The position numbers were made by a program, and so were the translations under genes. This document shows, piece after piece, positions 8,774 through 9,763 of a DNA stretch of 64,000 nt (within the stretch, counting starts at the first letter, position 1; each line of letters opens with the position of its first letter). The stretch comes from an uncultured Pseudomonadota bacterium (lineage in GTDB: Bacteria > Pseudomonadota > Alphaproteobacteria > Rs-D84): contig CAMZIQ010000001.1 of assembly GCA_947307295.1 (NCBI GenBank), forward strand, positions 104,968 through 168,967, in the 5' to 3' direction. The notes under the pieces are model-generated. The model searched no databases. It saw only the letters and a program-made list of their open reading frames with translations, and was not told the origin of the DNA.

Positions 8774-9763
8774 TTATCTTTCTGGCATTTGCTTTATATT
8801 CGATTGCATTTTGTTTTCATACATTTTTATATATTGTTTCGGTGTTTTTTGCCATAAAATATCGCATTGTTCACCCCTGACAACAGCTTTTTTATTCTTT
8901 ATTCTGAATTTATGCATATCCAAATAATCCGACACAGAAAAATAGTACAAACCACCTTCAAAGTTAACAGTCATTACCGTAAATTCTCTATCTTCTTTTT
9001 TTACATGCATAATTTTTATTGGCAATTTGCTAGTTTGTATTTGTTTACAAAAATCATAAATTTTTCCGATATGTTTTTTTATATCGATGTTTTTCAAAGC
9101 CGTTTCAAGTTTACTACAAATAAAAATGGTACTTTTATCACGCTTAGAAGCATATTTTAAAAAATCACTAAATTTGGATGTTTTTTCTCTGTATTCATCA
9201 TAAGTCATAAAGGCGGTTATTTCATAAGGTACGTCAATACCGTCTAAGATATGATGAACTTTATTTCCAATTTTTATTTCATCCAGTAAAAATGGCACCC
9301 CCTGATAATCTGGGTTTTGTGGATAATTTTTAACAGTCGATTTTTGATTTGGTTCAATCGCATACCATTTACCATTTCCCATTTTGACACATGGTAAAGT
9401 ATGTGCCACATAAGCATCTATTAAATGATCTGGATGCACACTTATCATAATTTTAACTTCTAAGGGTTTGAAATTATCTTCACCTGTTCGAACTTTATCT
9501 TTATCGACTATTGAATTTTTATAACAAAAAGATTTTGCCAATGTCCCGCAAGACCATTGACAACCACTTTCATAAACATCCTTGCCAGATATCGCGAAAA
9601 AACGTTCAGTATCACTTGATTTATTATTTATATACGATTTATATTCTTTTTGATTAGTCCGATTAACCAACACAGTATGCCTACTTCCGTCATCCCTGTG
9701 CTTTGGATTGTTTATCTCATCCAAAATATGCTTAATAGTCCTGATTCTTTCAGCATCTGTCAT
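8774..9763 (-). CDS. Hypothetical protein, one of a paralogous pair (paralog at 49123-50169)
   Basis: Shares blocks HTLPCVKMGNGKWYAIEPN and GVPFLLDEIKIGNKVHHILDGI with the 348-aa ORF at 49123-50169. I recognise no known domain. Confidence 0.6.
   Translation of the reverse strand: MTDAERIRTIKHILDEINNPKHRDDGSRHTVLVNRTNQKEYKSYINNKSSDTERFFAISGKDVYESGCQWSCGTLAKSFCYKNSIVDKDKVRTGEDNFKPLEVKIMISVHPDHLIDAYVAHTLPCVKMGNGKWYAIEPNQKSTVKNYPQNPDYQGVPFLLDEIKIGNKVHHILDGIDVPYEITAFMTYDEYREKTSKFSDFLKYASKRDKSTIFICSKLETALKNIDIKKHIGKIYDFCKQIQTSKLPIKIMHVKKEDREFTVMTVNFEGGLYYFSVSDYLDMHKFRIKNKKAVVRGEQCDILWQKTPKQYIKMYENKMQSNIKQMPER

Follow-up and report, generated by a model that had tools for sequence, protein, structure and literature searches.

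Two paralogous proteins of an Rs-D84 alphaproteobacterium represent an unnamed, lineage-specific family with a probable transglutaminase/papain-like core and recurrent acetyltransferase, subtilase and ABC-transporter neighbours

What are the two related proteins that are encoded some 40 kb apart in the genome of an uncultured alphaproteobacterium of the order Rs-D84, and what might they do? The question arises from a stretch of 64,000 nucleotides, referred to as the window, on contig CAMZIQ010000001.1 of assembly GCA_947307295.1 (positions 104,968 to 168,967). The two open reading frames (ORFs) concerned, called A and B, are as follows.

8774..9763, minus strand: paralog A, an ORF of 329 residues encoding a soluble protein of pI 9.1.
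49123..50169, minus strand: paralog B, an ORF of 348 residues belonging to a distinct clade of the same family, 37-39% identical to A.

An earlier note on this DNA, drawn up from the letters and a list of ORFs, had taken A and B for paralogs, and this is correct: pairwise BLASTP gives 118/302 identities (39%) with E = 8e-68, a similarity far above chance, and the starts of the two ORFs lie 39.4 kb apart, in agreement with the ~40 kb reported. Two of the shared blocks that had been listed, HTLPCVKMG[ND]GKWYAIE and GVPF[LV][LV]D[ED]I[KE][IV]G[NK][KE][VI]HHIL[DN]GI, are found in both proteins as given. The N-terminal block is also conserved (AERIRTIKHIL in A, EQRIESIKAIL in B), but the 'ERI' of its proposed pattern reads 'QRI' in B. 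The N-termini of A and B are hydrophilic, in line with the reported lack of a signal peptide, and no transmembrane-like segment was detected in either protein (maximum 19-residue hydropathy 0.74; pI ~9.1). Searches of Pfam and NCBIfam at E <= 1 returned a single chance-level match and searches of PDB sequences returned none, so that the statement that the proteins have no recognisable family also stands. A family hidden Markov model (HMM) run against the six-frame translation of the window found A and B and no third copy. The GC content of A is 0.307 and that of B 0.327, compared with 0.38-0.40 for the flanking housekeeping genes and 0.371 for the whole window.

Database searches show that A and B are members of a larger family. 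A word-indexed search of 5.8 billion proteins gave 23-29 clusters, all unnamed or 'hypothetical' and without Pfam annotation. An exhaustive search of 1.84 billion representatives with the family HMM gave 65 proteins at E <= 1e-3, to which a broader second profile added a handful, and the closest relative of A in the searched collections is 59% identical. The named source organisms are nearly all metagenome-assembled genomes (MAGs) of gut or rumen Alphaproteobacteria, several of them Candidatus Enterousia. A scan of one genome per GTDB species located 14 loci, all in alphaproteobacterial MAGs from gut, rumen or faeces and four of them titled Candidatus Enterousia; a metagenome scan located 20 further loci. 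Loci and family proteins are given below as L and P numbers. The remote member P0083 derives from a 'Rickettsiales bacterium' MAG. Gut and rumen are the widespread habitat of Candidatus Enterousia and its relatives, none of them cultured, and Ca. Enterousia (order Rs-D84) has a genome of ~0.75-1.0 Mb and is fermentative and probably partner-dependent (PMC12306168). The family of A and B is previously undescribed and lineage-specific, and is without a name, a domain model or a solved relative. A phage or mobile origin was considered and is unsupported, as no relatives were found among 2.9 million viral contigs.

The family forms at least three clades: one A-like, a second 28-35% identical to A, and one B-like. 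Members of two clades lie 5 kb apart in a single genome (L014, RUG585). Two family genes stand tail-to-tail in L038 (4703-5437 and the adjacent convergent gene), and in P0004 (529 residues) the core is duplicated as two tandem copies, the N-terminal one being far more divergent.

To identify conserved residues, 54 members with identities down to 14-20% were aligned (numbering of A throughout). Four columns only are invariant: Cys72, Phe79, His121 and His171. Each of these Cys and His residues occurs in 54/54 members. Ala76, Pro124, Pro138, Gly166 (52/54) and Pro179 are nearly invariant. At position 137 there is either Glu (29 members) or Asp (25), with no other residue occurring, and further Cys residues are conserved at positions 125 (47/54) and 80 (25/54). 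In A the spacings Cys72-His121 and His121-Glu137 are 49 and 16 residues. The codons were checked in the window and lie at the following positions.

9548..9550, minus strand: Cys72 of A, proposed nucleophile.
9401..9403, minus strand: His121 of A, proposed general base.
9353..9355, minus strand: Glu137 of A, proposed third residue of the triad, with Pro138 next.
9251..9253, minus strand: His171 of A, the fourth invariant residue, in a G-x4-H motif.
49900-49902, 49771-49773, 49723-49725 and 49624-49626, minus strand: the equivalent Cys90, His133, Glu149 and His182 of B.

The family pattern can be written s-C-G-x-x-A-K-x-F...(49 residues)...G-H-[TV]-x-P-C-[VI]-K-x-x-D-G-x-[WY]-x-A-[IVF]-[ED]-P...G-x4-H. 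At the level of sequence it resembles the core motif of transglutaminase-like enzymes, most clearly in the remote member P0083, in which the corresponding stretch reads GCTGWAKTFLYLAKEKGI...GHVIAGIKLSDGKYHMIDP; we take this stretch to look like the transglutaminase-like core of prokaryotic transglutaminase-like proteases. His171 would be a contact of the active site or of the substrate.

The placement of these residues was examined in an AlphaFold2 model of A built with the family alignment (predicted local distance difference test score, pLDDT, 91.4; predicted template-modelling score, pTM, 0.87), with which a core-only model (A residues 40-210; pLDDT 90.9) agrees. In the model, Cys72 opens helix 72-84 (DSSP), His121 is at the start of strand 120-127, and Glu137 comes immediately after strand 133-136 of a hairpin, a predicted placement that is the triad layout of papain/transglutaminase-type enzymes. 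Two features of such enzymes are found in A: an invariant, putatively nucleophilic Cys (54/54 members) opening an alpha-helix, and, after it in the sequence, an invariant His opening a strand, with the acid directly behind the neighbouring strand. The domain order in A is a helical N-terminal region, the core (~55-190), four helices (188-241), a beta domain (249-306) and a capping helix. Remote members retain the N-terminal region and core alone (~profile positions 1-200), and their C-terminal parts are variable.

Searches did not assign the proteins to a known family directly. No significant profile match to the clan was obtained for A, B or the 54 members; in a comparison of the 54 members with Pfam at E <= 10, PF01841 was touched by two only (best E 0.16). 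P0083 aligned in register to PF01841 positions 42-108 with a non-significant E of 0.21, and 20 remote members scanned singly against Pfam gave nothing beyond sub-threshold PF01841. Sequence and profile searches of the PDB with A, B, the full-family profile and the core-only profile gave nothing meaningful. With the full and core-only models, Foldseek returned no match at E <= 1e-3 from the PDB or from viral structures. In the absence of a significant structural or profile match, membership of the fold is probable and not proven.

The weak Foldseek matches have a recurring theme. Cys-His(-Asp) enzymes of the transglutaminase/papain superfamily account for 22 of the top 50 weak matches of the core model, namely phytochelatin synthase, NTAQ1, Josephin clippases, a deubiquitinase (DUB), SseI and GdmF, while vasohibins, BpJOS and PSL1a recur among those of the full model. 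The best-superposing match was a phage 'COG3672 transglutaminase-like cysteine proteinase' (probability 0.92, root-mean-square deviation (rmsd) 4.3 A over 92 columns), the E value of which is not significant. The top-ranked matches, axonemal MIP/DUF1126 and Dcp1, superpose at an rmsd of 11-39 A and were taken as noise. A PH-like C-terminal beta domain, suggested by matches to Dcp1 and FARP1, was dropped because Dcp1 also matches the core-only model, and the use of P0083 as a bridge to a known family failed because P0083 is a singleton. The guess of the earlier note that the proteins might be Cys-His enzymes is therefore upheld in part: the invariant Cys72 and His121, the Asp/Glu at position 137, the modelled placement and the weak structural matches speak for it, but no match is significant.

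Other Cys-His families fit less well. Peptidase C39 was not matched in Pfam by A, B or the 54 members, no fusion to an exporter was found, and the exporters near family genes are 583-596 residues long without a peptidase domain. NlpC/P60, CHAP, arylamine N-acetyltransferase and other Cys-His families had no match among the 54 members at E <= 10. As the residues and topology agree with the transglutaminase/papain superfamily and the profile match fails, the family was filed as a new divergent one outside PF01841, C39, NlpC/P60 and all other named families. We consider it likely that its members are thiol enzymes built on a transglutaminase/papain-like core. What sets the family apart is the long insert carrying the invariant His171, a helical N-terminal region that begins with a conserved Met-Thr-Asp (MTD), the C-terminal beta domain, and a partnership with acetyltransferase, subtilase and exporter genes described below.

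A comparison with known enzymes brings out both sides. The transglutaminase/papain superfamily (PF01841; COG3672/BTLCP, LapG-type) shares the order Cys...His...Asp/Glu, a Cys that opens a helix (C-x-x-A-x-x-F), a His that opens a strand, and an acid after the next strand followed by Pro. The family differs in lacking a significant sequence or structural score (E 0.14-0.21), in having one more invariant residue, His171, within a long insert that separates the acid from the last strand of the core, and in its own N-terminal helical region and C-terminal beta domain; in addition, LapG-type enzymes are periplasmic, whereas the family has no signal peptide. The N-terminal glutamine amidase NTAQ1 (C8orf32), which has a transglutaminase-like Cys-His-Asp layout, provides 6 of the top 50 weak matches of the core. 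Its Cys-His and His-Asp spacings are ~53 and 16, compared with 49 and 16 in A, and amide hydrolysis at a protein N-terminus would suit an N-terminal acetyltransferase partner. However, these matches have E 0.4-0.9 and a template-modelling (TM) score of ~0.2 with no sequence similarity, and NTAQ1 is eukaryotic with a different periphery. The vasohibins (VASH1/2), tubulin carboxypeptidases that are divergent transglutaminase-like cysteine peptidases, provide 11 of the top 50 weak matches of the full model over ~260 columns, suggesting a similar arrangement of a helical and an alpha/beta lobe in the modelled protein. These matches are not significant (probability 0.13-0.38, TM score 0.17-0.28, rmsd 14-20 A), and vasohibins require the chaperone SVBP and have a non-canonical third residue.

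What the proteins might do is best approached through their neighbours. Those of A and B that matter here are listed first.

8141..8734, minus strand: GNAT1, an Acetyltransf_3 (RimL-like) acetyltransferase 39 bp downstream of A (PF13302, E 5.5e-12).
7582..8157, minus strand: GNAT2, a second Acetyltransf_3 protein, overlapping GNAT1 by 17 nucleotides (PF13302, E 4.9e-19).
47309..49081, minus strand: ABC exporter, a half-transporter of 590 residues with fused transmembrane and nucleotide-binding domains, 41 bp downstream of B (Pfam ABC_membrane and ABC_tran).
45283..46119, plus strand: radical-SAM gene, 278 residues, divergent (Pfam Radical_SAM, E 4.9e-7).
46121..47305, plus strand: Lys-rich repeat protein of 394 residues, starting 2 nucleotides past the radical-SAM stop and translationally coupled to it.

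The neighbours are those that had been reported: pgk upstream of A (by 35 bp), and the ABC exporter followed by the radical-SAM gene downstream of B. From A the order continues with GNAT1, GNAT2 and clpP-clpX, and no terminator-like site was seen between pgk, A, both GNATs, clpP and clpX until past clpX. No minus-strand terminator-like site was seen between B and the ABC exporter either, so a two-gene operon is likely there. GNAT1 scores 28 bits against the NCBIfam RimL model (cut-off 184) and, being so far below the cut-off, is not a RimL ortholog. The NCBIfam matches of the exporter are MsbA-related and HlyB-like, all under the cut-off. Orthologs of the window GNAT and ABC exporter in the gut and rumen alphaproteobacterial MAGs are 66-87% identical, which makes it very probable that the genome of the window belongs with them.

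Gene context was sampled from 52 family genes at 50 loci, which fall into 29 clusters after dereplication at 80% identity. In 7 of the 28 clusters for which a downstream neighbour exists, the immediately following gene on the same strand is an Acetyltransf_3 GNAT; the gaps range from -46 to +72 bp, and the two genes often overlap. A GNAT occurs within three genes of the family gene in at least 11/29 clusters. These context GNATs score far under the cut-off of the RimL model and are RimL-like rather than RimL; in L003/L004 and L011, the GNAT that directly follows the family gene is 69-70% identical to GNAT2. Subtilases of 399-447 residues that retain the D-H-S triad and lack a signal peptide stand next to the family gene in L001, L019, L021 and L033. 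In P0035/L047 a subtilase and the family domain form one fused protein, Rosetta-stone-type evidence that the two are functionally linked. Other fusions join the family domain to an S41 peptidase (P0038/L046) and to an APH-type kinase (P0053).

Transporters and resistance-type proteins complete the picture. In L020 two ABC half-transporters flank the family gene (gaps of 10 bp and 3 bp), followed by a GNAT; the window exporter is 66% identical to the downstream exporter of L020, and the adjoining family proteins are ~36% identical. B and L020 have half-transporters only, and L015, where the family gene is followed by TolC, HlyD and MacB genes, is the sole locus with a full MacAB-TolC-type set. 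In L003, L004, L011 and L014, 17 bp separate the end of an ABC-F gene from the family gene that follows it. Four clusters have an ABC-F gene no more than three genes away, and ABC-F genes also occur at L021 10476-11906 and L010 9000-10418. The ABC-F proteins are closest to Vga/Msr/Lsa-type resistance factors rather than to EttA or Uup, and score 392 bits against a cut-off of 380 for the NCBIfam 'ribosomal protection-like ABC-F'. NUDIX-ASCH and helicase genes are also found among the neighbours. The association is not universal, and several loci have no informative neighbour; remote clades are found in a setting of hypothetical genes with a Fic protein close by, or are flanked by OmpA-like and AAA_33 genes. 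The recurrent linkage to RimL-like GNATs, subtilases, ABC exporters and ABC-F proteins, which was absent from the earlier note, is the most informative feature of the family.

From the invariant residues on the right structural elements, the cytoplasmic location and the linkage to GNATs, peptidases and exporters, we infer a thiol amidohydrolase or peptidase. In such an enzyme Cys72, at the N-terminus of its helix, would be the nucleophile and His121, at the start of its strand, the base, with Glu/Asp137 orienting His121; the thiolate would attack an amide or peptide bond by way of an acyl-enzyme intermediate. The enzyme, often together with an adjacent or fused cytoplasmic subtilase, would cut a peptide-like substrate, and the RimL-type GNAT would acetylate the primary amine exposed by the cleavage. 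In some loci, including that of B, an ABC exporter or a MacAB-TolC pump would expel the product. That A and B are soluble cytoplasmic thiol enzymes, peptidases or amidohydrolases within a cleave-acetylate(-export) module of this kind, has in our estimate about an even chance of being right; that the family works with the GNAT on a peptide-like substrate is proposed more tentatively, at somewhat short of even.

Such a module could serve two ends. One would be to mature a peptide that the cell itself makes and exports, following the logic of leader peptidase, N-acetyltransferase and ABC exporter known from clusters for ribosomally synthesised and post-translationally modified peptides (RiPPs). 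In the RiPP systems with C39 exporter peptidases or LanP-type subtilases, which remove leaders, a thiol peptidase and/or a subtilase is likewise genetically tied to an exporter: B lies 41 bp upstream of one, the exporters of L020 flank their family gene, subtilases are adjacent or fused, and a radical-SAM gene resembling those of peptide maturases is nearby. The family protein is, however, free-standing, has no C39 match, and is accompanied by no precursor peptide or double-glycine leader that could be found, and the radical-SAM similarity is far under the cut-off. The best NCBIfam match of the radical-SAM protein is the YydG peptide epimerase family (42 bits, cut-off 300), with other similarities, all far sub-threshold, to ScmE, WgkB and viperin; this distant similarity points weakly to maturation. 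No precursor-peptide gene was seen beside B, where the intergenic gaps of 41 bp, 3 bp and 160 bp are too small.

The second possible end is detoxification of incoming peptide-type or translation-targeting toxins. In self-immunity to microcin C-type translation inhibitors, the amide-cleaving hydrolase MccF, the acetyltransferase MccE/RimL and an efflux component are encoded together (PMC3817062). The family gene similarly keeps company with GNATs of RimL-like type, ABC exporters and ABC-F proteins of resistance type, but MccF is a serine peptidase of unrelated fold and no mcc biosynthetic genes are present; the likeness proposed is one of gene logic alone. Neighbours of the ABC-F, APH and efflux kinds, together with the rapid change of the family, point towards detoxification. 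Either end fits the present evidence, which does not separate them.

GNAT1 is 76-87% identical to the GNATs beside members in L013, L019, L021 and L039, whereas those members are 28-47% identical to A. This indicates either a far higher rate of evolution in the family than in its partners or a replacement by paralogs at a conserved site. The alternative raised in the earlier note, an effector family, would mean secreted or translocated effectors or toxins, as rapidly changing thiol proteases or deamidases delivered to a host or to a neighbouring microbe, with ABC/TolC systems as the secretion route and variable C-terminal domains for targeting. Besides the contrast in identity with the GNATs, this explanation would accommodate the presence of exporters next to proteins that have no signal peptide, the several divergent paralogs per genome (in the window, and in L014 with its two clades), a GC content under that of flanking housekeeping genes, C-terminal modules as varied as S8, S41 and an APH-like kinase, and the position of remote members in islands of hypothetical genes beside a Fic protein. 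Effector-type enzymes (SseI, DUBs, Josephin clippases) are among the weak structural matches, and genomes in the host lineage are under 1 Mb and probably belong to partner-dependent organisms (PMC12306168). Against it, the exporters of B and L020 stand without a membrane-fusion or outer-membrane partner beside them and are most like MsbA-type half-transporters, at sub-cut-off scores; so close a coupling, often with gene overlap, to a GNAT and a subtilase that are both cytoplasmic is atypical of effectors; A sits in an apparent housekeeping transcription unit, pgk...clpPX, that has no internal terminator; and no secretion signal was identified. We regard an effector role as unlikely.

A wider conjecture, which we rate as rather improbable, is that the family is a rapidly diversifying class of enzymes unique to Rs-D84/Enterousia-type bacteria that mediates interaction with other cells. 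It could take the form of resistance or immunity, in which thiol cleavage of peptide-type translation inhibitors would be combined with RimL-type acetylation, ABC-F protection and efflux, or of an exported protease or deamidase effector behind the dependent lifestyle.

A third explanation, distinctly less probable than an effector role, is that the family serves as a housekeeping enzyme in the maturation of translation proteins. By trimming or deamidation, a dedicated thiol peptidase or amidase would process a ribosomal protein or translation factor, and the new N-terminus of this substrate would then be acetylated by the neighbouring Rim-type acetyltransferase, by a logic that might be analogous to that of dedicated ribosomal-protein processing proteases. 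The Rim-like GNATs, the ABC-F proteins (392 against 380 bits), the NUDIX-ASCH and helicase neighbours, the clpP-clpX genes in the same apparent operon as A, the conservation of GNAT1 at the level of a core gene, and the N-terminal amidase NTAQ1 among the weak structural matches are all consistent with it. An enzyme of this kind would nevertheless be expected to be single-copy, slowly evolving and widespread, whereas the family occurs in several copies, evolves fast, is AT-rich and is restricted to a single order, and the S8, S41 and kinase fusions are ill-suited to such a task. Finally, that the proteins are non-catalytic adaptors or regulators of neighbouring enzymes or transporters, with metal-binding or structural Cys and His residues, would agree with the lack of a significant fold match to any enzyme, with two invariant His and several conserved Cys residues (C72; C125 in 47/54; C80 in 25/54) and with fusion of a regulatory domain to bona fide enzymes, but is very improbable given the order Cys...His...[DE]-Pro, the 49/16 spacing and the helix and strand placement, which are requirements of a thiol hydrolase, and the strict Asp/Glu alternation at position 137, which is typical of a catalytic acid and not of a set of metal ligands.

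The preferred reading therefore remains that of a thiol peptidase or amidohydrolase in a module with acetyltransferase and exporter partners. Having a clear candidate active site and repeatable partner genes, the family is directly testable. Orphan transglutaminase-like families are common; what is unusual here is that diverged copies are kept in very small genomes and that the partnership is conserved, and genes kept in several diverged copies by genomes of < 1 Mb are likely to matter for lifestyle. If the family does consist of peptide-maturation or detoxification enzymes, it would be a new thiol-enzyme family in the transglutaminase/papain superfamily and a first handle on the peptide-based interactions of Ca. 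Enterousia and its relatives. If it is merely an orphan hydrolase, the impact would be confined to annotation.

The N-terminus of the family is a further point of conservation. Nearly all members begin Met-Thr-Asp (encoded at 9755-9763 and 50149-50157 in the window), followed by a conserved helix, xxRIxSIKxIL. N-terminal conservation this strict is out of the ordinary and may point to processing of the N-terminus, to its acetylation, perhaps by the GNAT next door, or to a signal for recognition. The MTD of B comprises residues 5-7 and a second ATG is present at 50157, which might be the true start, although the ribosome-binding site suits the first ATG better. The likely expression signals of B, read from the DNA, are listed here.

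50178..50212, minus strand: putative expression signals of B.
50212-50204: extended -10-like element, TGGTATAAT, absent from a consensus scan owing to the lack of a -35 match.
50183-50178: ribosome-binding site, AAGAGG, 8 nucleotides ahead of the ATG.

On the other side of the ABC exporter, the radical-SAM and Lys-rich genes form a pair convergent with it. A radical-SAM protein of 389 residues, 28% identical to that of the window, occurs 5 kb from the family gene in L005. The Lys-rich protein (GC 0.29) has tandem 'KEYYEKNKE(Q/H)(Y/H)L' repeats and a Cys-rich C-terminus (…MCPLCNENCE…), and has no Pfam or NCBIfam match. A homolog of 261 residues, which shares the 'KKYYQ.NKE' repeats and the C-terminal 'FLL..RK…CPFCN' region, is found at L041 5861-6646 (minus strand), four genes from a family member. 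The region 45283..47305 (plus strand) belongs to the context of B, and its place in the module is uncertain.

Some observations on other loci and on the rest of the window may be added. In L023/L024 a Fic-domain (AMPylase-type) protein at 4728-5915 (minus strand) and small hypothetical genes flank a remote member of 371 residues; the region has the look of a variable accessory island, with rgpF/glycosyltransferase genes on one side and gyrB on the other. J-domain proteins adjoin members in two unrelated settings, in L005-L007 (516 residues, MORN and DnaJ, upstream and divergent) and in L008 (8933-9424, 163 residues, DnaJ-like, downstream), and GrpE is a downstream neighbour in L005-L007; this proximity could be a chaperone link or a coincidence. 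In the window, a run of genes divergent from B (50330-54134, plus strand) encodes lipoprotein-like proteins: one of 93 residues, one of 446 residues (no family match), and a DUF1425, an LpoB-like and a CsgG-like protein. The run resembles a cluster for the envelope or for activators of peptidoglycan synthase. A strong terminator-like hairpin is present on the minus strand at 50644-50621. Two tRNA-Pro genes on the minus strand (54486-54562 and 54754-54830, anticodons GGG and CGG), 190 bp apart, mark the sole GC-rich patch of the window (0.43).

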